NCBI GenBank assembly: GCA_021413905.1 | Contig: JAIOPO010000001.1 | Location: 201,159 to 265,158 of the forward strand | Origin: Candidatus Nomurabacteria bacterium | GTDB taxonomy: Bacteria > Patescibacteriota > Minisyncoccia > Phycocordibacterales > UBA9973 | DNA: 64,000 nt | Reading direction: 5' to 3' | Notes under the pieces: generated by a model | What the model was told of the DNA's origin: nothing | Database searches by the model: none | Seen by the model: the letters and a program-made list of their open reading frames with translations, nothing else | Shown here: positions 6,106 to 64,000 of the stretch, piece after piece | Layout of the letters: each line of letters begins with the position of its first letter | How positions within the stretch are numbered: the first letter of the stretch is position 1 | Position numbers and translations under genes: made by a program

Positions 6106-6149
6106 AACTTATTGATTATATCATACTATATAATATAAATGTAAATAAA

Positions 6150-6596
6150 TTATTTTCTGTATTTTCGAGTACGCCATTTATCGGCTATTTTTACGCGAGT
6201 GAGTGAGCGTTCGAGTTCTGTGGCAAAATGTTCGAAGTCTACTACTTCTTTATTTTCTGCTTGTTTACGTAATTCTTCAGCTTTTGCTTTTGCTTTATTT
6301 ACTTCTTCTTCAGAAATATCAGTCACAAATTCCACAAAGTCTGCCAAAATGATGACATTGGTAATTTTATTTTCGTCTTCTTTGACTTCCACAAAACCTC
6401 CTACCACAGCCATAGGAATATGTTCACCTTTTACAATACCGACAATATCTCCAGATCTTAATCCTCCAATAAGAGGAATATGTTCTGGTAAAATTGTAAT
6501 TTCTCCTTCAATAGTCGGCACGACAACAGCATCCATCATTTCTTCAAGGATTAGTTTTTCCGGCGTTATTATTTTTAATTTTAATTGTTTTGACAT
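6150..6596 (-). CDS. atpC: F1 ATP synthase epsilon subunit
   Basis: It is the last gene of the atp operon. The N-terminal beta-sandwich sequence is LKIITPEKLILEEMMDAVVVPTIEGEITILPEHIPLIGGL and the C-terminal helical region is rich in A, K and E. Confidence 0.85.
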   Translation of the reverse strand: MSKQLKLKIITPEKLILEEMMDAVVVPTIEGEITILPEHIPLIGGLRSGDIVGIVKGEHIPMAVVGGFVEVKEDENKITNVIILADFVEFVTDISEEEVNKAKAKAEELRKQAENKEVVDFEHFATELERSLTRVKIADKWRTRKYRK

Positions 6597-6667
6597 AAAT
6601 TTATTTACTTAAAAATTTAAAATAGTTCTTGAGAAAAGCCTTGTTAGGAGCGACGGCGACGGACAGA

Positions 6668-6696
6668 GAAAATTTTTAGCAAAAAATTTTCGTGCT
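6668..6696. promoter_or_regulatory. Conserved intergenic hairpin element, copy 1 (between atpD and atpC)
   Basis: GAAAATTTTT-AGCA-AAAAATTTTC is a 10-bp stem with a 4-nt loop (6668-6691), followed by CGTGCT. A near-identical core with compensatory flank changes occurs at 14892-14929. Confidence 0.4.
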
Positions 6697-6721
6697 TTTC
6701 GAGAGAAGCTATTTTTAATTT

Positions 6722-9081
<2,360 letters not shown>

Positions 9082-39210: not shown

Positions 39211-39460
39211 TTAATTATTTGCCATAAGCCATGCATTTAATATTTTACGAGTGTAAGGACCCAAAACACCAGTTCCTTTTTTTAGACCCTGAGGAATAAG
39301 AATTTCTTTTGCATGAGCTTCTTGGAATTTTATTAATTGTTGTTTTGTTTTTTTACCAAAGAAATTATTTTCTTTACCTTTAGAACCAACCCCATTAAGA
39401 GCAATAGTGAAACCGTTATTATTCAAGAAAATTTGAAGTAATTTTACGTCGTTATTTGTA
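39211..39460 (-). other. C-terminal peptidoglycan-binding (PG_binding_1-like) domain of the giant protein
   Basis: DVKLLQIFLNNNGFTIALNGVGSKGKENNFFGKKTKQQLIKFQEAHAKEILIPQGLKKGTGVLGPYTRKIL fits the PG_binding_1 pattern (V..LQ..L...G.....DG.FG..T..A...FQ.....DG..GP.T...L). A poly-Gly linker precedes it at 39605-39650. Confidence 0.6.
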
Positions 39461-51400: not shown

Positions 51401-54400
51401 TTATTACCAACAAAATAATAAGGATTATCATTTACATTTACTCCGTTACAATCATCATTGGGACCTTGATTAGAACAATAGACTTCTGGTGTTGAATCAT
51501 TATAAAAAGTATTAATTGTATTTAATGTTCCAACATAATCACCTACTATATTACCAATATACCCCGCACCAAAATTTGAAAATTGAACAGAAGCAAAAGA
51601 ATTTTGAATATTTATAATTCCTGTTCCTGGGCCAAACCCTTCCCCTTCATAACCGATCAAACCTCCAGCAGTTCCAGAACTAGAAAAACCAGTACCATTT
51701 AAATTTACTTTTGAATAAGAGTTAACAACACTTATTTCTGGATAATTATACCCAACAAGACCTCCGACAATAGCCCAACCTGAAATATTTGTATTTACAT
51801 ATGAATCTATAATCGTAAAAGGAGTATCGTTCGTATTAGAAAAACCAACCAAGCCTCCTGCAAAAAATCCATCAAACATATTTTGAGCAAGACCTGTAGA
51901 ATTAACACTTGAATTTTCTCCACCAAAAAAGTTTTCTCTGAAATCTATATCTACATGAGAACCAGTTGTGTCTAAAAAACCAATAAGTCCACCAGTATTT
52001 GAATTACCAGAGATGACACCATTTGAATAATTATACTTAAATTGATTTGTTAAATCGTAAGAACTATTGTCAAAAAGATAATAATACCCGACAAGACCTC
52101 CAACAGAATTAGAAGTACCTGTCACAGATCCTGCTGTGTAAGAATTATTATTAAATTGAAAATCTAAATTATTATTTCCAAAAATTTCAGCATCAATTTC
52201 TCCTGCAATACCTCCGATATACGAATCACCACTTATATCTCCGGTTACATTATTATTTAATATATAAAAATTAGTAGTATCATTATTGCTATTATTGTTA
52301 ACATAAGAATACCCTATCAAACCTCCAGTATACTGAGAACCTCCTAGAATATCATCATTTGATTCATTGTCATGAATAGTAGTAACTATTACACCAGAAC
52401 CACTATCATCATAAACATCAATCTCACCTAAAAGTCCACCGACAGAAAAAGCACCATTAGAACCATCGATTAATCCATTTTCTATGGTATTAGAAAAAAT
52501 CTCTATATTGATATTACCATTTCCTGTTGAATATCCTTCAACAAAACCTATCAAACCTCCAAGATAATAACTTGAACTAGAAAGTGTAACATCTCCAGTA
52601 ATTGTATTGCCATGAACATCTAAATTTCCAGCATCATAAACATCTGAATAACCAATCAATCCTCCAACTTGAGAACCATCAGCATTTACATCTCCTGAAA
52701 CATTTGAATTTAAAATATTTGATTCAATATCTGTGCTTAAATATCCGACAACGCCTCCAGTACAGTAACTACCATTTACTATTCCAGAAAAAGTCACATC
52801 ACTTATAGTGACATTTGATGCATAACCTGCAACACCTCCAATATTACTATTTCCATTAATTGTTCCGTTAAATTCACCGCCACTGATAGTAGTTCCATAT
52901 GCTACACCCACAAGTCCACCGATATTATTTCCAGAACCAGCTGAAACATCAACAGAAGAATATACATCTGTAATTGTCGCGCCATTAGCAATAGCAGCAA
53001 GAGCACCAATTGTCGAACCATTTATACTTTGAACATTTCCAGCAAGATGTAAATCTTGAATATTAGCAGTATCACTGAGTTCAGAAAAAAGACCGATATT
53101 TGGATCACCCTCACCGTCAAGATTTATAGTAATAGTATAACCATTTCCATCAAGACTTCCTGAAAAAACACCCGAATTTATCATCATTGAATTTCCTTCT
53201 CCTGCACAAGAAAGATTGCCGTCCAAAACAAAACTTTCATCTAAAAGATTATTTATATTTTCAAAATCACTACAACTAGAAATATGAATAACAGGACGAT
53301 CATTTACGGGACCTTCATCATTTAACACATTGTGTAATGTTGGATATTCATTACTAGCAGAATCCCAAATTGGTTCTGAACTAAAATCCCAATGTCCTAA
53401 AAAGGGAAAAACAGATGAAGTGTTTTTAAAATAATCCATTTCAGATCCAATAGAGTTTTTATTTTCACAAGTAGCCAAATCCCCCAAATAAGGATCTCCA
53501 GAATTCGTATTTCCACAAGCCGACTGTGTACTTCTTAAGGTATCCCAAAAAACATTAGAAAGCATAGAGCCAACACTGTCTGATGTTTGATTAATACCAA
53601 ATATTGCTCCATGATAACTACCAGAATTCACACTAGCAACACTAAAACTATTTTGTATAACTGCCCCTGATTGAATAACACCAACAAGACCTCCTGTATT
53701 CGTTTGTTCAGAAAATACTGTCCCTCTTGAATAACTATTTACAACACTAGATAAAGAAACAGTACCGGCAATTCCTCCGACGTTACCAAAATTAGAAATA
53801 ATATTTCCTATATTGTATGAATTTGTAATCTGAGAATTATTTCCCAAACTACCGACAATTCCTCCGACATGACTATCTCCAGTTATATTTGCCTTATTAA
53901 TAACCTGATCAATAATAGAATTATTGGAAAAACCGGTTAAACCTCCAAGACCGGATCCTATATTTTGAACAGAACCAGATATGCTCAATTTAGAAACTGT
54001 AGCATTATGTAAAAAAGAAAACAGACCGGCATTGTCTCCTTCATAGTTTATAGACACATCAATATTATGACCATTTCCATCAAAATTTCCCTGGAAACCA
54101 CCATACATCGATCCTGGATCTATGATTATATTATTATGTTCTCCTGCACATTCCAAATCTCTCATCAAAATAAAATAACTAGAAAGATGAGAATTAATAT
54201 GTTCAAACTGAGCACAAGAATTTATTTGATAAGGATTCCCGGAACTTCCATCACCATCTAAAAATTCAGCATTTGGATCATAATGAAAATTAAAATCTTC
54301 TGTTAGATTACTTCTGACGATAGTTACATATTGATCAGATAAATCATCTAAAAGTGTCCAAGTATTACCATCCATACTACCGTACAATTTCCAACTTATA

Positions 54401-55740
54401 GGATCTCTTCCTATTTCATCGTTTCCTGTTTTAAAACGATAACCATTAAATAAAATTGAATGACCAACACCAGTATCTATGACTACAGTAGAATTCCCCA
54501 ATTGAGGATCTCCTCCGTCATTATCAAAATTTTGATCCAACCATTTACTAGAAGAATCTACTCCGTCAATAATTTTCATTGCTCCTTCTGAATCATTTGG
54601 ATTATTACTACCACCTGGATTAGTAGCTGTAGTTCCTTCTGGCCAAACTGCGACTTCACCATTATACAAAGGAATAAATTCTTTCACTTGAACACAACAA
54701 ACAGCATCTCTTCTTTTTGTAATTTCCCATTTTACATAACGATAATTCGCATTAGTATTAGCTTTACTATATGTAAAATTTACGCTTGTTTCAGTTTGAT
54801 TAGTATTACCATCAATACCTTTTACATATAATGTATGTTCACCTGTTGATGGTTCTGGAATATCATTACCGCAAGAAATGCTAGAATATTCATCTGTATC
54901 AAATTTATAACTGCAAGTAACAGCTGTATCCCAAGAAATAGAAGGATTCCATACTGAAATAGTATCGGAAATCGGTGAATTTATCACAACACTCGGGGCT
55001 AAAGCAACCAATAAAGCCTGACTTTCCAAAGCTTGACTATTTGTACTCAAAGCACGATCATTCAAAATAGTATTAGCACTTGAATATCCAGAAGCAGAGA
55101 CAGTCACAAATGCATCATTATCATCCTCGCTCAAACCAATAGGACAAAGATAATCTCCTGGTGTTGATGATTCCACACAAACAGCCGGGCCAGCATTGAT
55201 ACTAGCACCAGATATTGGATTACTTGTATCAGAATCAGTTACTGTAATTTTATGAGAAAAAAGAAGGGCGTCCGAATTTGTAAAATTCGCAGTATGTGTT
55301 GAACTTGAAGTCCAAGTATCTAATGTGTCTGGATTATCAAAATTAACCAAAAAAAGATTATCCATTTCATGTGTGACATATCCATCGAGACTTACTCTCA
55401 CATCAACATAAGTCCCACTAATACAAGAAGCAGAAGCAGACAAGTAACTTGAAAAAGAAAAAGAGTTAATACTAATATTACCACTAGAAATAACACCGAT
55501 ATTCTGCCAAGTTCCACTATTACAACGAACATCCACTGAAGCATTATCTAAACTTGTGTTATCAAACTCTCTTTGTACAGTGACATACAAACCACCAACA
55601 GGAACAGCGTTGGCTATTTTTATACCGAGTATTGGAATAATAGGTGAAATAGGTGCGACAATAAAACTAAAAATAAACAAACTAAACAAAAAAGTTTTTG
55701 ATATCTTTTTTAATAACTTAAAAAAATGATGTGGTGACAT
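39211..55740 (-). CDS. Giant (5509 aa) multidomain cell-surface protein with N-terminal signal anchor and C-terminal peptidoglycan-binding domain
   Basis: A single uninterrupted ORF of 16,530 nt. The N-terminus is MSPHHFFKLLKKISKTFLFSLFIFSFIVAPI. Domains in order are a discoidin-like domain, seven GLUG-repeat modules (each opening with DPYQISSC.QL.NIN...Y.L..DIDC...GF.PIG...F.G.FDG.GY.I.NL), a LamG domain, Fn3-like domains, a 7-blade propeller, an Asp-box/BNR propeller, a Gly run (GGGGGGGGYGGY) and a PG_binding_1-like C-terminus. Confidence 0.9.
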   Translation of the reverse strand: MSPHHFFKLLKKISKTFLFSLFIFSFIVAPISPIIPILGIKIANAVPVGGLYVTVQREFDNTSLDNASVDVRCNSGTWQNIGVISSGNISINSFSFSSYLSASASCISGTYVDVRVSLDGYVTHEMDNLFLVNFDNPDTLDTWTSSSTHTANFTNSDALLFSHKITVTDSDTSNPISGASINAGPAVCVESSTPGDYLCPIGLSEDDNDAFVTVSASGYSSANTILNDRALSTNSQALESQALLVALAPSVVINSPISDTISVWNPSISWDTAVTCSYKFDTDEYSSISCGNDIPEPSTGEHTLYVKGIDGNTNQTETSVNFTYSKANTNANYRYVKWEITKRRDAVCCVQVKEFIPLYNGEVAVWPEGTTATNPGGSNNPNDSEGAMKIIDGVDSSSKWLDQNFDNDGGDPQLGNSTVVIDTGVGHSILFNGYRFKTGNDEIGRDPISWKLYGSMDGNTWTLLDDLSDQYVTIVRSNLTEDFNFHYDPNAEFLDGDGSSGNPYQINSCAQFEHINSHLSSYFILMRDLECAGEHNNIIIDPGSMYGGFQGNFDGNGHNIDVSINYEGDNAGLFSFLHNATVSKLSISGSVQNIGSGLGGLTGFSNNSIIDQVINKANITGDSHVGGIVGSLGNNSQITNSYNIGNIISNFGNVGGIAGTVSLSSVVNSYSRGTVFSEQTNTGGLVGVIQSGAVIQNSFSVASVNSGSYHGAIFGINQTSDSVGSMLSNVFWDTLRSTQSACGNTNSGDPYLGDLATCENKNSIGSEMDYFKNTSSVFPFLGHWDFSSEPIWDSASNEYPTLHNVLNDEGPVNDRPVIHISSCSDFENINNLLDESFVLDGNLSCAGEGNSMMINSGVFSGSLDGNGYTITINLDGEGDPNIGLFSELSDTANIQDLHLAGNVQSINGSTIGALAAIANGATITDVYSSVDVSAGSGNNIGGLVGVAYGTTISGGEFNGTINGNSNIGGVAGYASNVTISDVTFSGIVNGSYCTGGVVGYLSTDIESNILNSNVSGDVNADGSQVGGLIGYSDVYDAGNLDVHGNTITGDVTLSSSSYYLGGLIGFVEGYSTGNGNINIEIFSNTIENGLIDGSNGAFSVGGLLGEIDVYDDSGSGVIVTTIHDNESNDDILGGSQYTGGLIGYSYVNNNSNNDTTNFYILNNNVTGDISGDSYIGGIAGEIDAEIFGNNNLDFQFNNNSYTAGSVTGTSNSVGGLVGYYYLFDNSSYDLTNQFKYNYSNGVISGNSNTGGLIGFLDTTGSHVDIDFRENFFGGENSSVNSTGLAQNMFDGFFAGGLVGFSNTNDTPFTIIDSYVNTNISGWAIVGGLVGYNYPEISVVNSYSKVNLNGTGFSSSGTAGGLIGYEGEGFGPGTGIINIQNSFASVQFSNFGAGYIGNIVGDYVGTLNTINTFYNDSTPEVYCSNQGPNDDCNGVNVNDNPYYFVGNNANFPLNFFDVDVWSFVAGSFPTLINVSGDDIALFDGGSGTVEDPYQISSCIQLQNINQNQSANYILTDNIDCNSDTHEGGPLYNIGYGFTPIDQFSGIFDGDGYTINDLYINNSSSNNIGLFSYVQQGAIIKNVGLENVDITGADFTGGLAGENYLGKIYNVYVNGNVHGVDVVGGVVGSNNDYSNFIVNSYSGANVTGSSNVGGFVGQNVGQIMNSYATGNVSEIGGDNFTGGFVGYNEYDGVIKNSYATGNVSSEGFFTGGFVGYYASLDILNSFSSGNVDQGLNTDYVGGFAGSGDDYLTGLDYYDQVASGHNYCVGIFGDWAPSCVSVNDIQTYYSNNSVNSPLDKWDFSSAWSTNISGYPTLRQGNLFSGTGSGTDIDPYVVTSCSQFKEINNFALLDSSFLLDADLDCADDGTQIMVGNIIPFTGHFDGNGYSINIDIDNTDGTYHDVGLFVSLNQNALIENLTVTGDILSPYNVGGIVSEINNSAIQDSSSYVNITSTANDGWNPLIGGIAGYTVSSSLSNDNYHGNISVADSVWSVGGLVGYEDEDTTISDGSYSEGDISILSGANVGYAVGGLVGWATYAIIEDSYSNTNISSLSYSNNTGGLVGQSENSSIYRTYATGDIYSIGAYVGGLMGDVIDSEVYDSYSTGTVSCNDVCGGLIGVVANSNVFNSYSSSTIVGISSSFNSHISSFIGQALNASHIEGNFSVGSVTFWNGNEITNTPGVNDTYIGGIVGQENSNLGLNEIINNSYDQINTGVNQCIGDNTPGGQNGSSNSDCNPVNTIETPNENYFKNDNSNAPLNSFNNTNWVFTENYYPTLANLSSDDPNVYYTQGDGSPENPYQINSCTGLQNVNNDLNASYILTQNIDCSDTINWNSGQGFEPLGNDDYLFNGNFNGAGYKIINLFININSSLGVGLFGETNSSAVIENLGVENENITNASSYTGGLVGYNEGTIRNVYTTGRVTSEGTYTGGLVGVNDGLTTIDKSFSNVTVVGAVASGGLIGENHGTISDSYATGSVSGGQYVGGLTGINFYIISSSYATGSVFGNGSTHGGGLTGYLNGEITDSFAVGRVSNFSSLSGGLIGEYVNGALINNFYDQIRTEQSGCSQGSDISGCSAVNTIGNPDTNYFKNNNTNEPLASWDFNDTNIWDTSTSYPLLHGNTISGISFVNPTPENNSSQSSSVAEINMDSSSIGANHYAFTDIDNSLVAFWRFENNANDDTSSSNGIWHGTETYSTGKFGKAANFNGNSYISTTLPSTITGDFTFSSWVYLNNRYAGQSIFSDENGHLIQIGGGGQWQFDEYATFAPADIGAWTHLVAVENNGTETLYVNGEIAASGGASRNIGQTINIGRRTDGVYINGKMDDTLLFSRALNSNEIASLYNAHINQYDYTNEDFSNGSHSFTGYAVNTSGVKSSTEERSFTKASDFDGGDGSEGDPYQISSCPQLQLMNNDLSAHYILVDNIDCSDTLSWNANASEWVDGIVDGELIPDSYSEVTHTDIIVENNGYYGFEPVGNDSTPFLGTFDGDGYTINNLWIFRKDSDNNGVFGKTQNANIHDVNIENSNIVGAQNTGGLVGYMYGGTITDVNLTNNMIRTYLDYHGGGLVGMMEEGASINHIINNNGVVHGSGDIIGGLVGELDSASISNSSSSADVDGGASIGGVVGSANNGEITNTYASGGTVTSNRSEYLLMKTGYAAGGFVGYLYGSNISDSYSTENVNSTGDAAGGFAGVVNYSNLMNDYATGNVTGNQETNEYNTYNPNYVGGFVGAMYSGSNITMSYATGDVTTTGSYVGGFVGNLDGYSVVDNSFSLGSVNGDDYVGGFTGSISNLSLINKVYSKGLVTGNNTENTGGLVGYNSETGNIYNSFWDNENSNQSTSAGGTGEDTSTMKTESTFTDAGWNFDTLWDIDGFTNDGYPFISESASIFNGSGNESDPYQISSCSEFTSMNNSTNSSYILMNDLDCTSLGNGVVIGINREFSGNFDGNGHTITVDINAPSESNAGLFSVVGNGSKIQHLTVNGSVVGQNVVGMVVGANYGQILDVHSSGNVSGDSNVGGLVGFLYSYYVDASDSSANVSAISSNAGGLVGVNSGDISNSHATGDVSVSNTNSSHAGGLVGVNSGDISNSYATGDVTMGANSGYAGGLVGEIDSGDISNSYATGNVNIVDGSNIGGFAGHVQDASIEQSYSTGDVDGNGDGSNQLSYNVGGFVGSTYNATISNVYSKGNVSGNTNVGGLIGQLESNVNLNNAYSIGLVIGVEDYGGLIGLQTNINNTVTNSFWDLNTSNQINGNDGTSKTDAEMKNVDTFTNIESSGISNVWDFINNPVDDENNNDIWDISSMKNQGYPFFVWQSNIPIVETLVPSNTSDNSVNLNAQIVEAGNLEISERGFEWGLTDSYGESWSESSGPYSESIFSKTIYSLSANQTYHYRAFIVNNDGTTFGEDRTFIATNAKWQDVGDQDNFNNYEYNQSLKLNSQNVAYVAYVDSSNGYGVSVKKNNGSDWELVGEPNFSGTQVDYLSMQMYQDIPYVFYVEVNNEYKITVKRFVNDTWENVGDPRFNTGYAYELSSAISANGTPFVAFEDSNYGYKGTVMSFDGNNWNIIGNAGFTDGQIYRNQIATDSNNIPYIIYSDSSHSYSATVKKLVNGDWSTLGNPYFTSNYAWHVSMVLDSNNIPYVTYSDCNQNCSISVMTLDNDTWVNVGDPEFSGTGGVSYNKILVDSNNVIYVGFEDCSNACAATVMKWNGESWIYVGNAGFSTGSIEHFSLALDSNNIPYVAYHDNSLQNKTIVKFLPVISYEYYESDETHGAVSPSNPGTLVSYNGYLKTLTEDQRYLVTDISQSDSGYDSQIFKIHQNLNEINTPTFTINWKGHGAVPDEKNVIVSIWNFNTSEWEQISTEHCAEDCDISGSKTGSDYYDNNDNVWIWVKAENSVSTDLELSLTNTQTLPISWITNNESTTELAYDTISHLNDGWDSYASHTTDDNLVTSHETSPSLIDTTEKSWREVASSYDGQRLFGVVNGGDIWASNNSGLTWNNISASLGVKNWRSVSSNSNGTIIFATVDSGNIYRGVTNNGGATWVWTNLSSVSTDYPGTQDWLKVVSSADGYSISAIIDDYSYIYTAQSNDSGLTWIWTENTSTGLQNWRSIAMDYTGDKIFAVSSYDVENNANGSVWSGVNDGGWTWTDLSQISTGYPNNMSWGDSYISTNENGSKFVVAKEGGYIYTVKSGETWDWTENQDLGTPYWYSVNMSPDGSKIILGENCGQIGVGIYNSQSGIWSWSRKGPNQCFGIGAASNYNGSKLIMSVGSGALWTSNDGGENWLNVTGNAYYYRVRSCDAEGVCKTSPEQTILYGISSSCPFIFTWNGEEYKFIIDASSSGTMGQGLDREQWKSTPFYKAPTYPNPESFVKIPSGYMAPTTNNNGTYYDIKTTFELNEVNYYDQANLEVIDHSSNVNIFPDARQNKQIHTIAKNAQAPIWIKDQNGKDVKSLIAYDDNNYYHTRKEDTSSYLTMKLSNDTVTPANLKIVVKKGKEGLFQGNKQSDALQYKNSSGVFVNVPENMNPSIGKRSGQSVTNRILSNSYGVDTKVIDLSGLTIKDNEIRFVMTNRQIQTDIDWIAVDTSPDEEISKSVLSPYYANLHFRGISNMIPLNANDAHMGDLEIPDYADLISKKGKGNTLTGMATKYGDVKDLLANVDNKFVITTQGDEISLRYEVPVQANGTERDFIYDTWDYHKSFHNALGDTIFPLPFNEMTNYPYHENLEHYPTDTEHNAYQAEYNTREINWGTDESVATPGIHHSLNTDFVNVSVSDSNDSVENPIVTTSSASSVSRSQGTLNGTIVSTGGELASVRGFYWGSTTNYGNTILQNIGSYDEGSFSTVISNLSCGTTYHFKAYAINSSGTGVSDTDRVFSTSACLVASGGGGGGGGYGGYSSTQDTTQKDVKNLEEKINNISSDFKIIKTGLPDGFQFKKNLKQSNTNNDVKLLQIFLNNNGFTIALNGVGSKGKENNFFGKKTKQQLIKFQEAHAKEILIPQGLKKGTGVLGPYTRKILNAWLMANN
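41420..42400 (-). other. BNR/Asp-box beta-propeller domain of the giant protein
   Basis: Five Asp-box motifs are present: SNNSGLTW, TNNGGATW, SNDSGLTW, VNDGGWTW and SNDGGENW (S.D.G.TW). Confidence 0.65.
42960..44030 (-). other. Seven-blade beta-propeller-like repeat domain of the giant protein
   Basis: There are seven repeats of about 48 aa, W..VG...FS.G......LA.DSNN.PYVAY.D......TVMK, running from WQDVGDQDNF to NKTIVKFL. Confidence 0.5.
44960..45150 (-). repeat. Near-perfect 90-bp in-frame tandem duplication inside the giant gene
   Basis: agaatttgaaatatcaccggaattaacaccgaccaaacctccggcat recurs at 45001 and 45091. It encodes two consecutive copies of HAGGLVGVNSGDISNS(H/Y)ATGDV, with a third diverged copy adjacent. 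Confidence 0.75.
47240..47770 (-). other. LamG/concanavalin-A-like lectin domain of the giant protein
   Basis: The segment runs from LVAFWRFENNANDDTSSSNGIWHGT...GDFTFSSWVYLN to LYVNGE and ends DDTLLFSRALNSNEIASLYN, a classic Laminin-G_3 pattern. Confidence 0.7.
54300..54750 (-). other. Discoidin (F5/8 type C)-like carbohydrate-binding domain of the giant protein
   Basis: The segment runs from NYRYVKWEITKRRDAVCCVQVKEFIP to ISWKLYGSMDGNTWTLLDD, a galactose-binding-like fold pattern. Confidence 0.5.
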
Positions 55741-56361: not shown

Positions 56362-56928
56362 TTACCCTAAAACTTCATTTATTATTTCTTTCAGTCCCTT
56401 TTTTTCTTTTGAGGAGAAAGGCAAGAGTTTGTGTTCGCCGACTGTTTTTTTAATTTCTTTGATGCTGTTGTGATATTGTGATTGATTCAATTTGTCTATT
56501 TTAGACAACGCAATTACGAAGTCTTTATGCTGATTCACCAGCTCTTGATACATTGCGATGTCTTTATCCGTCATCCCCACAGAAGCATCCACGATAAACA
56601 CCACTTTCTTTTGGTCAAAATTTGTATTAAATAAATATGAATCTATCAAATCATAAATCTTTTCTTTGCCTCGTCCGGAAGCTTGCGCGTATCCATAGCC
56701 CGGCAAATCCACGAAATATAGATTGCTATTTACAAGGAAAATATTTATCTCTTGCGTGCTCCCTGGCAAAGAACTGGTGCGAGATACCGTGCTATGCGTC
56801 AAAGCATTTATGAGGCTGGACTTGCCCACATTGGAGCGCCCAATAAAAGCCACTTGTGGCACGCCGTCCGTCAATATTGCGTCATCCTCCACAATCCCCT
56901 TTAAAAATTTTACAGAATTTATCTTCAT
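56362..56928 (-). CDS. engB: Ribosome biogenesis GTPase EngB/YsxC/YihA
   Basis: The G1 motif is AFIGRSNVGKSSLINALT and the product (188 aa) has a typical EngB layout. Confidence 0.85.
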   Translation of the reverse strand: MKINSVKFLKGIVEDDAILTDGVPQVAFIGRSNVGKSSLINALTHSTVSRTSSLPGSTQEINIFLVNSNLYFVDLPGYGYAQASGRGKEKIYDLIDSYLFNTNFDQKKVVFIVDASVGMTDKDIAMYQELVNQHKDFVIALSKIDKLNQSQYHNSIKEIKKTVGEHKLLPFSSKEKKGLKEIINEVLG

Positions 56929-56964
56929 AATTTTATATTAGCAAATTAAAATTTTTTAAGCGAC

Positions 56965-57513
56965 TTAATACAATTGTATAGCTTTTCTTTTTTGCTTGTG
57001 GTCAGAGATTTGTTGTGCTACGAGTGCCCAAAACCTTGCTGAATGATTCATCTCTTTTAAATGGCACAGCTCGTGCACGATGATATAGTCTGCGAGTTCC
57101 GCGGGCAAGAAAACTATTTTATAATTAAAATTCAAATTGCCTTTCCCTGAACAGCTTCCCCATCGGGATTTTTGATTTCGTATGTAAACTTTCTTAAAAT
57201 TAAATTTGTAAAAATTATTAAAATGCTCCAGTCGCCCGCTCGCAAGCTCGCGGGCTCTCTCCTTATTCTCACTAAAATCCTTTATCGAACAATGCGCCAA
57301 GATTTTCTGCGGTTTAGCTTTCTGCTCCGCTATTTTACTCTGCACCCAATCCCATTTCTCCCGCATTATTTTCTCCACACTACCCAAACTCACCCGCGCA
57401 CCTTTCGAGACATATACCGCCCCATCCGCCCCCACACTTATCAAAACCTTCCTCCCCCGCACCGTATTTCGCACCCGATAATTAAGTCCGTTTAGATGTT
57501 TGATGGTTGGCAT
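56965..57513 (-). CDS. YgjP-like (DUF45/M48-type) zinc metallopeptidase, last gene of the hsd operon
   Basis: The sequence is WGSCSGKGNLNFNYKIVFLP...IIVHELCHLKEMNHSARFW, with the HExxH motif of YgjP/WLM-like proteins. The product is 182 aa. Confidence 0.75.
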   Translation of the reverse strand: MPTIKHLNGLNYRVRNTVRGRKVLISVGADGAVYVSKGARVSLGSVEKIMREKWDWVQSKIAEQKAKPQKILAHCSIKDFSENKERARELASGRLEHFNNFYKFNFKKVYIRNQKSRWGSCSGKGNLNFNYKIVFLPAELADYIIVHELCHLKEMNHSARFWALVAQQISDHKQKRKAIQLY

Positions 57514-57521
57514 GACTTTAT

Positions 57522-58706
57522 CTACACCAATTCCCCATTAAAAGCTTCACGGAGATATGATTTTTCTAATTTTTTAAAATCTTCAAGTTGTGATTTTTGT
57601 AATTCTACCATTTGACGAATTTTTTCTGAAAGTGTATCCAATCGTTCAACAATTTTCTTCTGTTCTGAGAATGGTGGAATTATGAGTTTTATGTCATCTA
57701 GCATGTATTTAGTTATTTGATTTATCATTGGACCCCCACCAGCACTAAACTGATCAAAAAATAACTTAGACTTAAAGAAATAATAAAGGTAAGCATTATT
57801 TTCACTTCTAATAATTGTCATGAACGTACCGAATGTCATTTTCTCAGTAAGATTTTTAATCATTGCAGTTTTCCCAATTAGTCTTTTACTTCCATTTCTA
57901 CTACACATTAAAATATCTCCGTCTTTCACAAAGAGTTCTTCTTTTATTTTCTTTTCAACTCTAACCAAACTAGATAAATCAATTAAGTCCTTTTGCACAT
58001 TGGAGGATCTTAAAACTATAGTTCCTTTTGAACCAACATCACTAGGAGAGTAAGTTAAACCTATAGAATATTTTGCAATATCTTTTAAAAATACTTCCTC
58101 CCAGCCTTTTTCTTTACCCTCTTCAAAAATTTCACGGAGGGTTTGGGAGAGGATTTTTTCTGTTTCAGCGATTGATTGTTCGCGCAAACTTTTCACCTCC
58201 CGAATCTTTGCAAATTTCTCATCCAAAATCTCCACAATTTTCTTTTGAATTTCAAGTGGTGGAAGTGGGATTTCAATTTCTTTTAATCGTGAACCTGAAA
58301 CCTCTAAAAATGTTGAGCCACTACCTAAAGAATTTAATAACTCTGTATTTGAAAATAAAAAATAATATAAATATTTATTAAATATCTCTGAACCACAAAT
58401 AAAACTACGGCAACCCTGATTTGTTGCCATTGGTACTGTATTTATAACGACATAACCAATCGGTGCGCGAGATGATAATATAACGGACCCAATAGGTAAT
58501 TTTTGAGCTGAAGAATTTTTGAGTCCTGATTCAGAAATTTTTCGTTCAGTTTCAGAAATCTGAAAACTATCAAGTCGTCCAAGATCTTTTGGTGTTACCC
58601 AACACAAATCACCACCCCAATATTTTGAAATACCAGTTTTTGGAGTACCTCCGCCAACGATTTCACAAATCTCACTTAGTTTTTTTATTTGCCAGTTAGT
58701 TTTCAT
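57522..58706 (-). CDS. hsdS: Type I restriction-modification specificity subunit HsdS
   Basis: There are two target-recognition domains with conserved central and C-terminal coiled repeats. The N-terminus is WQIKKLSEICEIVGGGTPKTGISKYWGGDLCWVTPKDL. The product is 394 aa. Confidence 0.85.
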   Translation of the reverse strand: MKTNWQIKKLSEICEIVGGGTPKTGISKYWGGDLCWVTPKDLGRLDSFQISETERKISESGLKNSSAQKLPIGSVILSSRAPIGYVVINTVPMATNQGCRSFICGSEIFNKYLYYFLFSNTELLNSLGSGSTFLEVSGSRLKEIEIPLPPLEIQKKIVEILDEKFAKIREVKSLREQSIAETEKILSQTLREIFEEGKEKGWEEVFLKDIAKYSIGLTYSPSDVGSKGTIVLRSSNVQKDLIDLSSLVRVEKKIKEELFVKDGDILMCSRNGSKRLIGKTAMIKNLTEKMTFGTFMTIIRSENNAYLYYFFKSKLFFDQFSAGGGPMINQITKYMLDDIKLIIPPFSEQKKIVERLDTLSEKIRQMVELQKSQLEDFKKLEKSYLREAFNGELV

Positions 58707-59677
58707 ATTTTTGTGTAATGTTTATCCATTTCCTTATATACTTCTGAAGAGAAAAAGGCTCTTTTAATACCACTCTTTTTTACAGGATCTAAATAACTGA
58801 ATTTACAAAATACATCTTTGCTTTTTATTTCCTCAATAATTTTATTAAATACACTATTTTGCTTAAAATCACTATATCTATTTTTTAAAGAAGAAACTAA
58901 ATCTTTTTTATTAATTGTATATTTAGTTTTAAATAGACTTTCTTCACTAATAAAAACTGATGCTCCTTTTTTTCCAACCCTGACTGTATTTATTCCAGAT
59001 GACCCTTTTTCAAACTTTGTAACTAAATTTAATGAAAAATTATGTGGGGAGTTTTCAGTATAAGGATTTTTTCTCTCTTTTAATTTAAAATATTTTAGTA
59101 GATTTTTCTCTTGAACTGTTTGTTTGTTCACAGAAAAACTTTCAATTTCGTATGGATGAAAAAAAGAGATTGGCATTAGATAAAAATTATATTTGCTCAT
59201 ATCGTAACTAAACCAATCAGAAGTAAATTCTAGGTAACTTTTTAAAGAAGCTGTGCATATTTCTTGTATTTTTTTTGATAAATATTTATCACTATTATAG
59301 AAATGTATACTATTATCTCTAATTTCAATTATTGCTTCTAAATTATCTTTTACTACTTTTGGTAACTTTAAAAGTTCTATTAGTTTAAATATCTCCAAAG
59401 TATACGGGTTACCGCTCCTATTTTCCTTTGGATAAAACCTTTTAACTGGATCACCTTTCTTCGTCTTTGTTTTGGACTGAACTTGAATACTTGAAACTTT
59501 ATTTTTGTTGTCTTTTAAAACTTTTGCTTTAAGTAATAGTTCCCAAGCATTAACTAGTAATATAGAAAATATTTCTTCTCTATACGCAAAATCTGGCTTA
59601 TTATAAATCTCTATTGCTGAAATAATAGAAGCAACTGATTTGTCAAGTAATTTACTTTGTAAATTTTGTTTTGCCAT
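58703..59677 (-). CDS. HEPN-motif protein embedded in the type I RM operon (candidate RNase/abortive-infection effector)
   Basis: An Rx4HxY motif (IEIRDNSIHFY, Arg120/His125, nt 59302-59328) follows the N-terminal helical region SAIEIYNKPDFAYREEIFSILLVNAWELLLKA. Its start overlaps the hsdS gene's 5' end by 4 nt (ATGA) and its stop is 2 nt from the TIR gene start. The family assignment (DUF3644/DUF4145-like) is from memory, not searched. Confidence 0.5.
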   Translation of the reverse strand: MAKQNLQSKLLDKSVASIISAIEIYNKPDFAYREEIFSILLVNAWELLLKAKVLKDNKNKVSSIQVQSKTKTKKGDPVKRFYPKENRSGNPYTLEIFKLIELLKLPKVVKDNLEAIIEIRDNSIHFYNSDKYLSKKIQEICTASLKSYLEFTSDWFSYDMSKYNFYLMPISFFHPYEIESFSVNKQTVQEKNLLKYFKLKERKNPYTENSPHNFSLNLVTKFEKGSSGINTVRVGKKGASVFISEESLFKTKYTINKKDLVSSLKNRYSDFKQNSVFNKIIEEIKSKDVFCKFSYLDPVKKSGIKRAFFSSEVYKEMDKHYTKI

Positions 59678-59679
59678 GA

Positions 59680-60753
59680 TTATCTTTTAGATTCTAAAAT
59701 TGTTTTTAATTCTAAAATTATCTCATTTATATTATCAGATTTTTTTGCAATTCGATCTGCAAAAGTAAGACTATATTGAGAAATATCCTCACGAGTAATA
59801 TTATGCCAAATTGGTAAAATAACATTCTTACCATTTTTCTCTTTAGAAAAAAGTCCATTTAATTCGTATTCAGTCCATTTTTTCTTTGAAAGAAATGCTT
59901 TCGAAAAAATAACGATTCCGTAGCGGGAATTCTTAAGACCATTATCAATGGTAGGTCTTAAATCATCTCCCCAACCAACAACAAAAGAATCGTACCAAAC
60001 AGAAAAACCTGCATCTTTTAAAGATTGAGCTAAAATATTTACAAAATCTTTATCTTCACTTGCGTGACAAATAAAGACATCAAACTCAGTTAACTTTTTT
60101 TCAGTAAGATTAGAAGACTTTTCAATTACTTGAGAGTTGTTTTTAAATTCTTCTTTTTTAGGAATTCCTAACTGTTTAAAAAAATCTTCATCTTTTGATA
60201 TTTCAATATTTGTTTTTTGTTCTGCCTCCGAGATAGCTTTATCTATATTACTATTATATTGTTCAATTTGCCGATTTAAATACTCAGATTGACTTAATAA
60301 AAATTTGATAACTTTTTCTTTCTCTTGAGTAATAGGGCCCGTTTCATCGGAAAATTTTATCACCTCAAAAACAATATCATTATCAATGATATCAATCTCT
60401 TCAGTTTGAAGAATTCTTGGAGAGGGCGCGCACTTCAAAAGACTCTTATCACCTGAGAATGGTAAATGAAATCTTATAACATCTTTTTTGTAATGTTCTC
60501 CTCGCTCAACCCAGTATGATTGAGGAAAATATTCAGCTGGAATTTCAGCGGATTCAATTGTAAGAGTTATTTGTTCTGGATAGAAAGTTAAGGGTAAGAT
60601 TTTATATTTATCTGAAAGTTTAGAAATATCAGCGCTATTTCCACTTTTTATGATTAAACCAACTTCATCTTGTATTTTTTTTATCTGAGCAGCTAATGTC
60701 GATGAAAAATCATATTCATTAAATGCTCTAAATCCTTGAGTAGTAATTAACAT
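59680..60753 (-). CDS. TIR-domain protein (N-terminal uncharacterised domain plus C-terminal TIR) embedded in the type I RM operon
   Basis: The C-terminal roughly 135 aa (nt 59680-60090) are EFDVFICHASEDKDFV...GFSVWYD...RYGIVIFSKAFLSKKKWTEYELNGL...ILPIWHNITRED. These match the bacterial TIR hallmarks (the DVFISH box, a conserved Glu, and the W.K.EL motif). The N-terminal 220 aa have no recognisable family. Confidence 0.75.
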   Translation of the reverse strand: MLITTQGFRAFNEYDFSSTLAAQIKKIQDEVGLIIKSGNSADISKLSDKYKILPLTFYPEQITLTIESAEIPAEYFPQSYWVERGEHYKKDVIRFHLPFSGDKSLLKCAPSPRILQTEEIDIIDNDIVFEVIKFSDETGPITQEKEKVIKFLLSQSEYLNRQIEQYNSNIDKAISEAEQKTNIEISKDEDFFKQLGIPKKEEFKNNSQVIEKSSNLTEKKLTEFDVFICHASEDKDFVNILAQSLKDAGFSVWYDSFVVGWGDDLRPTIDNGLKNSRYGIVIFSKAFLSKKKWTEYELNGLFSKEKNGKNVILPIWHNITREDISQYSLTFADRIAKKSDNINEIILELKTILESKR

Positions 60754-60759
60754 AATTTA

Positions 60760-60933
60760 TATATTCTTTAAAATCTTTTTAATCTCCTCTTCCTTCCCTA
60801 AAATCCTCTCGACCTTATTTTTTATCTTCGGTTTCTTTAAATCAACCTGAAAAATCTGTCCGGATTTTTCAGGTTTTGTTTTTCTGTATTCAAGAAAAGA
60901 TATTTTATAGAACGGATTTATAATTTTTGCCAT
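60760..60933 (-). pseudogene. Remnant of an HsdM C-terminus (57-codon ORF) downstream of rhuM
   Basis: It encodes ...KVERILGKEEEIKKILKNI*, matching the true HsdM C-terminus LVERILGKEEEIKRIISNL. It contains a 36-bp repeat identical at 35 of 36 positions to the hsdM 3' end. Confidence 0.5.
60779..60814. repeat. 36-bp direct repeat, copy A (matches the hsdM 3' end)
   Basis: ttaatctcctcttccttccctaaaatcctctcgacc differs at one position from copy B at 62018-62052. Together the two copies bracket rhuM. Confidence 0.8.
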
Positions 60934-60944
60934 AAATAATTTAA

Positions 60945-61967
60945 TTATTCCTCTTTATTTTTATCTAAAATCTTTTTGACTTCTTTTTCAAAATCAGACT
61001 CTATTTTTTGATATTTATTAAATTCTTTATATTCATCTAGGGCTTTTTCTTTTGCTTGTTCTGCAGAAATACGTCCTTTGCCGTCTAGAATCTTGTACTC
61101 ATTGAAAGTTAAAAACTTATTTACACTCTCTGCAAATTCAGCCATAGTAAATGTTTCCTTTCGTTCAATAATACCTTCAATGTAATCAAAAAAACTGCTC
61201 ACGCTACGCTCGAGACTTTTGATTTGATCTTCTTGTAAATAATTTTTTGCAATTGTGACATCGGATTGCAATATCCTGCCGGGAGAATTTTTCCAAGTTG
61301 TAAGGTTCATATTTGGCTGAGTTGCATCAGCTTTTGTATAAATAATTTCTGCCGCAGTTTGCCCTGTAATAGCATAATGGAATTTATTTTGCACCATTGC
61401 ATAAAAATCTTTTGCTTGTTGTGTGTCCTTTTCATAATCAATGCTACATTCAGCAAAAATATCTGTTATCTGAAGCCAAATGCGTCGCTCGCTGGCACGA
61501 ATAGAACGTACACGCTCCAAAAGTTCACGAAAATAATCGACACCAAAGAATTTTTTACCGTTCTTTAAACGTTCATCGTCTAAAGCAAAACCTTTAATAA
61601 TAAAATCACGCAATATTTGAGTTGCCCAAATACGAAAATCTGTTGCTCTTTTTGAGTTAACACGATACCCAACAGCAATAACTACGTCAAGATTATAATG
61701 CATCGTATCATACTCTTTACCATCAGTAGCAGTTATTCGGAAATTCCTAATAACTGAATCTTCTTTTAATTCAAGGGTTTCAAAGATATTTTTTAAATGT
61801 TCATTTATAGTTGGTATTGACACATCAAAAAGCTCTGCCATTATTTTTTGAGTAAGCCATACCATTTCATCTTCAACGCGGACTTCTACTTGCGGTTTCC
61901 CGGATTCTGCGGTGAAAATCAAAAATTGAGTAGTTGCATTTTTTTGTTTTAACTTGTTATCTTTCAT
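60945..61967 (-). CDS. rhuM: RhuM-family protein (virulence-associated RhuM/Fic-DOC-like), inserted between hsdM and downstream genes
   Basis: NATTQFLIFTAESGKPQVEVRVEDEMVWLTQKIMAELFDVSIPTINEHLKNIF is a typical RhuM N-terminus. The product is 340 aa. This family is a frequent passenger between hsdM and hsdS. Confidence 0.7.
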   Translation of the reverse strand: MKDNKLKQKNATTQFLIFTAESGKPQVEVRVEDEMVWLTQKIMAELFDVSIPTINEHLKNIFETLELKEDSVIRNFRITATDGKEYDTMHYNLDVVIAVGYRVNSKRATDFRIWATQILRDFIIKGFALDDERLKNGKKFFGVDYFRELLERVRSIRASERRIWLQITDIFAECSIDYEKDTQQAKDFYAMVQNKFHYAITGQTAAEIIYTKADATQPNMNLTTWKNSPGRILQSDVTIAKNYLQEDQIKSLERSVSSFFDYIEGIIERKETFTMAEFAESVNKFLTFNEYKILDGKGRISAEQAKEKALDEYKEFNKYQKIESDFEKEVKKILDKNKEE

Positions 61968-61971
61968 ATAA

Positions 61972-63414
61972 TCATTTTAGCATTAAAATCTTATATTTTA
62001 AATTACTAATAATTCTCTTAATCTCCTCTTCCTTTCCTAAAATCCTCTCGACCAATTCTTTCGACCCGAATTCTTCTTCTACCTCAGCACCCTTTGGATT
62101 CTTGAAATCCAAATTAAAATTCTTTGCACGAATATCCGCGATTGAAACCTTCCATGCATTATCACTCGCTTTTTTATTTTTAAACCATTTTATTACTGGT
62201 TCAAACTCCGCATCGGTGATACCTCTATTCTTCGTATATTGTTTCAACCCCGCAGGCAATGGCATCTGATAATACCAAACTTCTTTTGTTGGTTGGCCTT
62301 TTGTAAAAAATACAAGATTCGTATTTACCCCAGCATACGGCTGAAAAACACCTGCTGGCAAGCGGACAATGGTATGTACATTACATTCCTCAAGAAGCTT
62401 TTCTTTAATACGAGATTTTACACCTTCGCCAAAAAGAGAACCATCAGGTAAAACTATTCCACATTTTCCACCAGGCTTCAAAAGACTCATAAATAATACA
62501 AGGAAAAGATCTGCAGTTTCTTTTGTGCGAAAATCCGCAGGAAAATTTGCCTCTGTGCCGTCTTTGACACTTCCACCGAAAGGAGGATTGGCAATAATAA
62601 TATCTACACGATCTTTTGGACCATAATCACGAAGTGGAGTAGAAAGCATATCACCACGACGAATTTGCTGAGGAATTTCTACGCCGTGCAAAATCATATT
62701 GGTAATAGCAAGCAAATGCGGAAGCGGTTTTAATTCTACTCCACGAATTTGTTGTTGAACTTTAGTTTCATCTTTTTTTGTTTTTACTTCTCCACTACTT
62801 CTGACATACTCAAGTGCACTAATAAGGAATCCTCCAGTACCACATGCAGGGTCAAGAATACTTTCACCTAATTTTGGATCAAGAGTACTGACAATAAAAT
62901 TCGTAAGTGGTCTCGGTGTATAGTACTCACCAGCATTACCTGCATTTTGAAGTCCTTTCAATAAATGTTCATAAATTTCGTTGAAATGATGACGATCGTC
63001 TTTACTATTGAAATCTATTTCATTTATTTTATTTACCACTTGACGAATGAGAGTACCAGACTTCATGTAGTTGTAAGTATCTTCAAAAACTTCTTTAACA
63101 ATAAGACCTCTAGGATCATCATTTTCATTGAATTTCAAACTCTTGAGTTGTTTAAATAGCTTATTGTTTATAAAATCAAGCATTTCGTCACCAGTAATCC
63201 CCTCGGCATTACTAGCCCAATTACGCCAGCGAAGAACTTCAGGAATCGGAGAATGATACTTGAGATCAAGAAGTTCATACTCTTTTTCTTTATCATCAAA
63301 AATCTTCAAAAATAAAAGCCACACGAGCTGTGAAAGTCGCTGTGCGTCGCCGTCTACCCCAGCGTCTTTACGCATGATATCTTGAATATTTTTTATGATT
63401 GATTGAATGGCCAT
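61972..63414 (-). CDS. hsdM: Type I restriction-modification DNA methyltransferase subunit HsdM (N6-adenine)
   Basis: The HsdM N-domain is QRLSQLVWLLFLKIFDD, the AdoMet motif I is LDPACGTGGFL and the catalytic motif IV is IIANPPFGG. The product is 480 aa. Confidence 0.92.
   Translation of the reverse strand: MAIQSIIKNIQDIMRKDAGVDGDAQRLSQLVWLLFLKIFDDKEKEYELLDLKYHSPIPEVLRWRNWASNAEGITGDEMLDFINNKLFKQLKSLKFNENDDPRGLIVKEVFEDTYNYMKSGTLIRQVVNKINEIDFNSKDDRHHFNEIYEHLLKGLQNAGNAGEYYTPRPLTNFIVSTLDPKLGESILDPACGTGGFLISALEYVRSSGEVKTKKDETKVQQQIRGVELKPLPHLLAITNMILHGVEIPQQIRRGDMLSTPLRDYGPKDRVDIIIANPPFGGSVKDGTEANFPADFRTKETADLFLVLFMSLLKPGGKCGIVLPDGSLFGEGVKSRIKEKLLEECNVHTIVRLPAGVFQPYAGVNTNLVFFTKGQPTKEVWYYQMPLPAGLKQYTKNRGITDAEFEPVIKWFKNKKASDNAWKVSIADIRAKNFNLDFKNPKGAEVEEEFGSKELVERILGKEEEIKRIISNLKYKILMLK
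62018..62052. repeat. 36-bp direct repeat, copy B (native hsdM 3' end)
   Basis: ttaatctcctcttcctttcctaaaatcctctcgacc lies in the last codons of hsdM. Confidence 0.8.
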
Positions 63415-63418
63415 AAAT

Positions 63419-64000
63419 TTATACGTACAAAGCTAACTGTATTTGATTAATAATTTCTAAATAATTTTCTCGTCCACCAAAAATGTCATTCACAATTTGT
63501 ATTGGGGTTCCAAAATTTGTAAATGGAGAAACTTGCAAGTCACCAATGTCGTCAATAGCTGTGATACCAGTATCTGCATATTTTTCTAAAAGCGCATCAA
63601 TAACTTCACGTGCCTTGCCTTCATATTTTGCAAAATAATTATTTTTCTTTACATTATTTGCACGTTCTGTTCGAGTTAACGGTTTCTTTCCGTAAGCAAC
63701 ATGACAAATTAAATCAAAAGGATCTAATTCTTTCCCTATTTCTTTTGCTAACTCTTCAAAAAATACACCTCTACTTTTTAACTCTTCAATAATAGCTTCC
63801 TTTTTATCACTCTGTTTCCATGCTTGTAGAAATGAATCGAGTGACGCATACTCACTCAAAATATTTTTCTTAGAATAGTCTTTTAAGGATTCCGTAATGA
63901 GCTTACCGTCTTCACCGATATATTGAACTCGCTCGTTAATAACTTTTATATCCACACCATTTATATATAGTTTTGTTCTAGGTTCGCCAATAGTAATAGG
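63419..64000 (-). CDS. hsdR: Type I restriction enzyme HsdR, C-terminal part only (N-terminus beyond window end)
   Basis: The frame is open to nt 64000. ...[42 protein letters not shown] matches the conserved EcoEI-R C-terminal domain. The stop is 4 nt before the hsdM start. Confidence 0.7.
   Translation of the reverse strand, partial: [193 protein letters not shown]

Follow-up and report, generated by a model that had tools for sequence, protein, structure and literature searches.

A TIR-domain protein with a widely shared N-terminal module, encoded within a type I restriction-modification operon of a Candidatus Nomurabacteria bacterium

The TIR gene and its setting

This study examined a TIR-domain gene in a 64,000-nucleotide stretch of DNA from a Candidatus Nomurabacteria bacterium (contig JAIOPO010000001.1), which is referred to as the window; the genome has a GC content of 33%. 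The open reading frame (ORF) is intact and complete, begins with ATG and encodes 357 residues, and its product is identical to an NCBI entry annotated as a toll/interleukin-1 receptor domain-containing protein (TIR domain-containing protein) of Candidatus Nomurabacteria bacterium. The gene lies in a type I restriction-modification (RM) operon with the order hsdR (C-terminus)-hsdM-RhuM-TIR-DUF3644-hsdS-YgjP-like peptidase (Table 1), which agrees with the original prediction, made from the letters alone, that it is embedded in an hsd operon. Judged by its sequence, the protein is a mosaic in which the putative sensor half of the candidate family PDC-S54 is joined to a TIR domain of the AbTIR type. 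We propose, with a probability of about 0.6, that it is a single-chain, self-contained abortive-infection sensor-effector carried as cargo in restriction operons.

The TIR domain and its catalytic residues

The C-terminal part of the protein matched the Pfam families TIR_2 (68.5 bits, cut-off 28, E 9.7e-19) and TIR (40.9 bits, cut-off 21.3, E 2.5e-10). A phmmer search of the PDB returned BtTIR (7uxr, E 4.7e-38) and AbTIR (8g83/7uwg, E 1e-37), and PdTIR (3h16) and TcpB (4lqc/4lzp) were also among the matches, the overall range being E 5e-38 to 2e-27. The domain shows 55-60% identity with AbTIR and BtTIR, two nicotinamide adenine dinucleotide (NAD+)-consuming enzymes (NADases) of solved structure, and 60% identity with a short AbTIR-like protein (P0103) according to BLASTP. 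These matches are far beyond chance and confirm the predicted C-terminal bacterial TIR domain. Every motif that had been quoted is present in the ORF, with FDVFICHASEDK at residue 224, WYD at 253, WTEYELNGL at 293 and LPIWH at 313.

To assess conservation, 44 full-length homologues with 32-73% identity were aligned (alignment A1). The invariant residues comprised D225, F227, A231, E233, D234, W253, D255 and L265, followed by G272, G279, S284, K291, W293, E297, L301 and P314. The catalytic glutamate, the absence of which would have counted against the prediction, is E297 (codon 59863-59865); it aligns with AbTIR E208 and is found in all 44 homologues, as is W293, the counterpart of AbTIR W204, which acts in the cyclisation of ADP-ribose (ADPR). 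Other residues that in AbTIR bind the NAD+ mimic 3AD or have been mutagenised are matched by K291 (AbTIR K202, diphosphate binding), T294 (T205), Y296 (Y207), D270 (D182) and W316 (W227, adenine contact), and, in the BB-loop, by G262 (G174), L265 (L177) and R266 (R178). All key catalytic residues are thus kept in the alignment to AbTIR, which argues for a TIR domain of the NADase type, as had been predicted.

In AbTir, the E208A protein is dead and the Y207A and R178A proteins are inactive, the 2' cyclic ADPR isomer (2'cADPR) accounts for 93% of the product of the wild type and 24% of that of W204A, and the full-length protein is a coiled-coil dimer whose activity is initially suppressed (Manik et al., bioRxiv 10.1101/2022.05.07.491051). 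From the correspondence of residues, we infer that the TIR domain of the window protein is an active, cyclising NADase.

The N-terminal module

The original prediction described a single N-terminal domain of 220 residues. The structural model and the alignment divide this region into three parts, namely an alpha/beta core (residues 1-137), one long helix (138-195) and a linker that extends to about residue 222. The AlphaFold2 (AF2) model of the N-domain was computed from an alignment of 30 sequences (A2) and reached a predicted local distance difference test score (pLDDT) of 88.3 and a predicted template modelling score (pTM) of 0.77. In this model, the core comprises helices at 16-37 and 40-50, a short helix at 103-107 and a four-stranded sheet (strands 63-72, 87-100, 119-123 and 126-133), and it is followed by one helix of 58 residues. 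Conserved positions in the core are F11, Q23, I71, F76, Y88, K90, P98, G101, L105, L106, P110, R113, F129, I132 and F134. Within the long helix, N167 is invariant and Q155 is conserved, and the helix ends in a conserved LGxPxK junction motif (195-200) that is common to the nuclease-bearing relatives described below. The linker is of low complexity, variable in length and poorly conserved in A1. By analogy with the coiled coil of AbTir, the helix is a probable dimerisation or signal-transmitting element. The core is acidic (isoelectric point 4.9) and is therefore no obvious nucleic-acid binder.

The claim that the N-terminal half matches nothing held in part. The region gave no significant Pfam or NCBIfam match, no PHROG family matched upstream of residue 165, a search of PDB sequences with the N-domain profile yielded no match (best E 0.017, helix only), and Foldseek found no counterpart of the N-domain model among the BFVD viral models (best E 0.04, TM score < 0.25). 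No ThsB-like or otherwise characterised relative was detected in these searches, which leaves the prediction standing on this point; the region is catalogued solely as part of a candidate, because residues 9-206 match positions 6-209 of the 410-position PADLOC model PDC-S54 (E 7.8e-28). Residues 158-354, which cover the helix and the TIR domain, match a second PADLOC model, PDC-S66 (E 4.3e-60); its length and the BLASTP match to P0103 suggest that PDC-S66 represents the AbTIR-like family of a coiled coil plus TIR. A Pfam hit to RasGAP_C (residues 146-226, 23 bits, below the cut-off of 26) was rejected, as it falls on the long helix and reflects coiled-coil composition.

Spread of the module and its interchangeable outputs

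An early word-index search with the N-domain alone returned two fragments and was replaced by an exhaustive search with a hidden Markov model (HMMER), in which a profile of residues 1-200 was compared with 1.84 billion cluster representatives (50% identity). The profile matched 2,828 clusters at E<=1e-3, 1,261 at E<=1e-10 and 161 at E<=1e-30, and these clusters come from both Bacteria and Archaea. Architectures were analysed in 68 proteins, that is, 67 matches of at least 290 residues and the window protein. The PDC-S54 model was matched by 68 of the 68. The C-terminal part was a shared PD-(D/E)xK nuclease module of about 208 residues in 53 proteins, a TIR domain in 11 (the window protein included), SEFIR/TIR_2 in two (P0194 and P0256), a class III adenylate/guanylate cyclase in one (P0219; Guanylate_cyc, E 3e-11) and something else in one. 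NucS, NucC, Can2, HamA and Shedu were named, lower in order, for the nuclease module. P0256 carries about 200 extra residues at its C-terminus.

The relation between the TIR and nuclease forms is direct. BLASTP aligned the window protein with the nuclease-bearing P0140 over residues 7-200 (30% identity, E 8e-31), and the shared part of the two proteins stops at the same LG(I/V)PxK motif. A tblastn search of plasmids with the N-domain of the window protein found nothing, and a member of the nuclease class was used as the query instead. The nuclease-bearing form was found on plasmids of Thauera, Nostoc, Streptomyces, Paludisphaera, Rhizobium, Spiroplasma, Deinococcus and Corynebacterium, on haloarchaeal plasmids (Haloplanus and Halobaculum) and in two phage or viral-metagenome records; the plasmid-borne proteins are annotated as "hypothetical protein" throughout.

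Judging from these architectures, the N-module is an autonomous, conserved unit that precedes at least four different output domains. The presence of the same N-domain before a nuclease, TIR, SEFIR or cyclase domain suggests a sensor or regulator that drives interchangeable toxic effectors, and to this extent the proposed sensor role of the N-terminal region is supported. The outputs of P0219, P0194 and P0256 are unusual and could show whether the module signals through a dimer rearrangement.

The operon and a remnant of hsdM

The features of the operon are collected in Table 1. Its gene junctions are 2-8 nucleotides long or overlapping, with the exception of a 191-bp gap before the TIR gene. 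The TIR stop codon and the start of the DUF3644 gene are 2 nucleotides apart, and the DUF3644 gene has 4 nucleotides in common with hsdS.

Table 1. Features of the TIR gene and of the surrounding operon in the window
Feature	Coordinates	Strand	Basis or remark
Complete ORF: N-domain, long helix, linker and TIR	59680..60753	(-)	
N-domain alpha/beta core, residues 1-137	60343..60753	(-)	
Single long helix, residues 138-195	60169..60342	(-)	Alignment and AF2 model
Junction motif and linker, residues 196-222	60088..60168	(-)	Alignment A1; inference
TIR domain, residues 223-357, AbTIR/BtTIR/PdTIR/TcpB type	59683..60087	(-)	Pfam, PADLOC and PDB sequence matches
Alpha-C active-site motif W293-T-E-Y-E297	59863..59877	(-)	Alignment to AbTIR
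hsdM 3'-end remnant, 58-codon ORF	60757..60933	(-)	36/38 nucleotide identity to resident hsdM
RhuM-family cargo gene	60945..61967	(-)	PADLOC PDC-S05, E 6.5e-148
hsdM, 480 residues, type I RM methyltransferase	61972..63414	(-)	
hsdR C-terminal part (EcoEI_R_C)	63419..64000	(-)	Gene continues past window end
DUF3644 (HEPN-type) cargo gene	58703..59677	(-)	PADLOC PDC-S19, E 1.6e-105
hsdS, 394 residues, two target-recognition domains	57522..58706	(-)	
YgjP-like metallopeptidase gene	56362..57513	(-)	Starts 8 nucleotides after hsdS

The gap between the RhuM and TIR genes contains the 58-codon ORF, which stops 3 nucleotides ahead of the TIR ATG. Over about its last 30 residues, this ORF repeats the C-terminus of HsdM, ending in KVERILGKEEEIKKILKNI before the stop codon, compared with LVERILGKEEEIKRIISNL in the resident protein. 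At the locus of the closest homologue of the window protein (P0002, 73% identity; locus L016), the junction is intact, with hsdM ending in GSKELVERILGKEGEIKELLINL before its stop codon, 4 nucleotides before the TIR gene. The ORF is thus recognisable as a recombination scar, the remnant of the 3' end of a second hsdM allele. Together with the intact junction, it indicates that the TIR block once directly followed hsdM and that an hsdM-RhuM segment recombined in upstream at a later time. The remnant and the repeated hsdM/TIR junction point to a shuffling of cargo between type I RM operons through recombination in the conserved 3' ends of hsdM.

Base composition also differs between the genes. 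GC content was 0.289 in the TIR gene and 0.252 in the DUF3644 gene, compared with 0.365 in hsdM and 0.322 in hsdS, and the GC content at third codon positions (GC3) of the RM/cargo block was 0.16-0.27. In the YgjP-like gene and the EngB GTPase gene that follows, GC was 0.43 and 0.39 and GC3 was 0.47 and 0.44; this step marks the boundary between the core genome and the acquired island.

A hairpin with a perfect 14-bp stem, AACCTGAAAAATCT-GTCC-GGATTTTTCAGGTT, lies within the hsdM remnant (60844-60875) and scores as a terminator on the plus strand only, opposite to the operon. With DUF3644 and RhuM as two more cargo genes, the hsdM-hsdS interval holds three independent candidate defence genes in one operon.

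Genomic contexts and the link to restriction

We compared the window with 11 loci obtained by exact-protein look-ups for proteins that combine the N-domain with TIR, and with 4 plasmid records of the nuclease class; this is a census rather than a systematic survey. In 4 of the 12 TIR contexts, the gene lies 3-8 nucleotides past hsdM or its remnant and before hsdS, as in the window, P0002 (73%), P0012 (59%; hsdR-hsdM-TIR-hsdS) and P0014 (56%; hsdM-TIR-223 residues-hsdS-...-Fic-hsdR). In another three contexts (P0015, P0007 and P0013), the gene follows a GmrSD/HNH type IV enzyme or lies close to one, the enzyme being paired with an EcoRI-like methylase, and in one (P0004) it lies beside a methyltransferase and a DndB/EVE protein. 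The remaining four (P0039, P0036, P0049 and P0057) have no restriction neighbour, and these proteins share at most 48% identity with the window protein. The gene downstream of TIR differs each time, being DUF3644 in the window, hsdS in L012 and unrelated genes for proteins of 223, 171 and 227 residues elsewhere, and no partner gene is conserved across the 12 contexts. The adjacent DUF3644/HEPN gene had been considered as a dedicated partner on account of its 2-nucleotide spacing and was rejected, as no other locus contains it. Around the nuclease-class gene, the four plasmid records show toxin-antitoxin pairs, insertion sequence elements and genes for NACHT and PIN proteins; one of them also has hsdS and a restriction endonuclease, and the other three have no restriction neighbour within 7 kb.

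The arrangement of EcoRI-like methylase, GmrSD/HNH and TIR genes recurs as a cassette on several groundwater Patescibacteria contigs, with a GmrSD-TIR spacing of 8 nucleotides (L001 5816-9113; L002 506-2716; L014 435-2625; L013 3820-8071), and it is a second preferred docking site of the TIR gene besides hsdM. In the P0014 operon (L018), further embedded cargo was observed: a Fic-domain gene lies between hsdS and hsdR (5900-6772), and a T5orf172/MUG113 gene follows hsdR (9126-9731).

Embedding at the hsdM/hsdS junction is therefore real and recurrent, but it is neither obligate nor specific to one type of restriction system. With no conserved partner, this pattern fits embedded cargo better than a dedicated coupling, and the original proposal of an NADase effector coupled to restriction was not supported as stated, given the GmrSD and DndB neighbours of equally close relatives, the solo copies and the changing downstream gene. 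The carriage of cargo genes in defence operons is a general phenomenon, and DUF3644 is a HEPN domain (Payne et al., bioRxiv 10.1101/2024.01.29.577857).

One rival reading keeps a coupling to restriction. The protein could be a guard resembling PrrC, held inactive by the restriction machinery or monitoring it, with an NADase that fires as back-up immunity once the machinery has been put out of action by an anti-restriction factor of a phage. PrrC in EcoprrI (hsdMSR) is likewise a toxic effector gene nested in a type I RM operon and provides a precedent (Payne et al., bioRxiv 10.1101/2024.01.29.577857). The tight hsdM junctions of the window gene and of the three nearest relatives that could be placed (P0002, P0012 and P0014) agree with such a role, and all 8 of the 8 contexts at >=55% identity adjoin restriction or modification genes. 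We nevertheless consider a guard unlikely. The adjoining systems, from type I to GmrSD type IV with an EcoRI-like methylase to a methyltransferase with DndB/EVE, differ in kind, and a single N-domain would probably not dock on every one of these. The four more distant TIR homologues and three of the four plasmid nuclease-bearing proteins do without a restriction neighbour, and the acidity of the core does not favour the binding of acidic DNA-mimic anti-restriction proteins. PrrC itself is an exception, being almost exclusively embedded and RM-regulated, whereas most embedded systems are mostly solo (Payne et al., bioRxiv 10.1101/2024.01.29.577857); the proteins with the N-domain and TIR are embedded in 4 of 12 contexts, and their domains are unrelated to those of PrrC. 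A broader variant, which we rate as still less probable, would make the N-domain a new fold of immune sensor, common to Bacteria and Archaea, that guards the integrity of the restriction machinery or detects anti-restriction factors, failure leading to suicide through whichever effector is carried (TIR, nuclease, SEFIR or cyclase). If true, the module would not be hitch-hiking cargo; it would guard restriction in a general and modular way.

Comparison with known systems

The closest known proteins are AbTir, BtTir, PdTIR and TcpB (PDC-S66; PDB 7uxu, 8g83, 7uxr, 3h16 and 4lqc), which share the TIR domain at 55-60% identity and a helical segment before it, together with the catalytic glutamate, the cyclisation tryptophan, the diphosphate-binding lysine, the glycine, leucine and arginine of the BB-loop and the adenine-contacting tryptophan. 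Those proteins, however, are about 250-280 residues long and have the coiled coil alone before TIR, whereas the window protein adds a core of about 137 residues and a 58-residue helix of the PDC-S54 type. With PDC-S54 (Payne et al., bioRxiv 10.1101/2024.01.29.577857), it shares about 200 residues of N-terminal homology, the same LGxPxK junction, the single-gene organisation and the defence-island or embedded contexts. PDC-S54 proper differs in that it is about 410 residues long and ends in the nuclease of about 208 residues in place of TIR.

In outline, the protein also resembles SpbK of Bacillus subtilis ICEBs1 (PMC12847820), a single chain with a non-TIR N-domain in front of its TIR NADase. 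SpbK stays inactive as long as its N-domains have not bound a phage protein assembly, and this binding brings the TIR domains together. The trigger is the YonE portal, the products are ADPR and N1-cADPR, and protection is by abortive infection (PMC12847820). Other single-chain TIR proteins are likewise switched on when their TIR domains are clustered by N-terminal domains. No homology between the N-domains was detectable, and the PADLOC spbK model matched only residues 147-249, that is, the helix and the start of TIR, and weakly so (E 2.6e-4).

The original prediction had also invoked Thoeris, CBASS (cyclic oligonucleotide-based antiphage signalling) and Pycsar. Like ThsB of Thoeris, the window protein has an NAD+-using TIR domain, and ThsB-type PADLOC models match this region. 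The architecture and context differ, and no ThsA effector (SIR2-SLOG, TM-macro or equivalent) was found in the operon or in the 11 homologous loci. With regard to CBASS and Pycsar, Pfam and PADLOC gave no SAVED, STING or cyclic nucleotide (cNMP)-binding match in the N-domain, no cyclase gene lies nearby, and the PADLOC SAVED_TIR model matches the TIR part only. For want of a ThsA, cyclase, SAVED or STING partner, the analogy does not extend to membership in any of the three systems.

A signal generator of the Thoeris kind would produce a cADPR-isomer messenger that activates a separate effector, such as one of the neighbouring DUF3644/HEPN and RhuM proteins. The retained cyclisation tryptophan, the nearest solved relatives with 2'cADPR as their main product, the ThsB-type matches and the HEPN-type gene 2 nucleotides away in the same operon are all consistent with such a role. 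We regard it as very improbable, because the operon contains no ThsA-type or other nucleotide-receptor domain, no other examined locus has DUF3644 or RhuM, and both genes belong to independent single-gene candidate families (PDC-S19 and PDC-S05). Moreover, sister proteins bear a nuclease in place of TIR, which indicates that the C-terminal slot holds an end effector.

Taken on its sequence, the window protein matches the full definition of none of these groups, whether the AbTIR clade, PDC-S54, SpbK, Thoeris, CBASS/Pycsar or PrrC. Because both of its halves are already catalogued as PADLOC candidates, it will not surprise specialists. A text search of the literature found no paper on PDC-S54, and among the papers listed in a search on type I RM, none mentions a TIR domain.

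Proposed mechanism and its significance

On the basis of these findings, the sensor-effector carried as cargo may be envisaged as follows. The N-module, that is, the core and the long helix, would keep the protein inactive, probably as a dimer through the long helix, by analogy with AbTir. The alpha/beta core would sense an infection cue or be released by it, and the AbTIR-type TIR domains would then cluster head-to-tail and form composite active sites, as they do in the filaments of AbTir and SpbK. NAD+ would be cleaved into nicotinamide and a cyclic ADPR isomer, most likely 2'cADPR, and the loss of NAD+ would arrest the infected cell. The gene appears to have been inserted or recombined repeatedly into restriction operons, above all between hsdM and hsdS in type I systems, where it would be co-transcribed and co-transferred while the Hsd proteins would not be needed for its function. 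The nuclease, SEFIR or cyclase in the same slot of relatives suggests that the C-terminal module serves as the final output, with the N-module as the common input. Single-protein defences of this kind have precedents: among TIR candidates from E. coli, 12 of 32 tested systems proved protective against phage, several of the new systems being single proteins.

Several observations weigh against this reading. The sole departure from AbTIR among the mapped residues is D264, which occupies the place of S176; of the BB-loop residues of the head-to-tail assembly (AbTIR G174, S176 and R178), G262 and R266 are kept, and in AbTir the S176A change leaves the protein with little or no activity (Manik et al., bioRxiv 10.1101/2022.05.07.491051). 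The same GWGDDLR loop, with its aspartate, is also found in P0103, the short AbTIR-like protein, and D264 therefore looks like a trait of a subclade rather than a sign of decay. The product is uncertain from sequence, and AbTIR-type domains are also reported to decap NAD-RNA (PMC10937652). The association of the closer homologues with restriction and modification genes is tighter than purely random cargo predicts. In the profile, PDB and BFVD searches, nothing recognisable as a ligand- or protein-binding relative of the N-domain came up, and the models PDC-S54 and PDC-S66 are themselves candidates obtained through "guilt-by-embedding" (Payne et al., bioRxiv 10.1101/2024.01.29.577857).

A role outside defence was considered as well. 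Many Patescibacteria, the group that includes the Nomurabacteria, are episymbionts, and a host-directed effector in the style of TcpB or AbTIR is one conceivable role, a housekeeping enzyme of NAD-RNA decapping or NAD turnover being another. This non-defence role, for which the first description of the TIR clade as virulence factors (TcpB, PdTIR and AbTIR) and the decapping activity noted above would speak, is the least probable of the alternatives, since no signal peptide or secretion-associated neighbour was seen by eye (no dedicated predictor was run), the contexts are of the defence or mobile-element type, free-living bacteria and haloarchaea carry the N-domain together with nuclease, SEFIR and cyclase outputs, and the patchy distribution and variable location are typical of accessory defence genes.

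If the sensor-effector reading is true, about 2,800 clusters in Bacteria and Archaea share an undescribed sensor module that has four different outputs and neither a Pfam entry nor a structural relative. The TIR version would be a convenient handle on what the module senses, because the loss of NAD+ is easily read out. To our knowledge, phage defence in Patescibacteria, or the Candidate Phyla Radiation (CPR), has been little studied, and the window gene is one of few concrete single-gene immune candidates in this group. Its practical value is that of a testable candidate and a sound experimental lead rather than a new principle.

Other features of the window

Apart from the operon, the window contains a giant ORF (39211-55740, minus strand) of 5,509 residues. 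Its product is repeat-rich and rich in Asn, Ser and Gly, has an N-terminal hydrophobic segment and is probably a surface protein.

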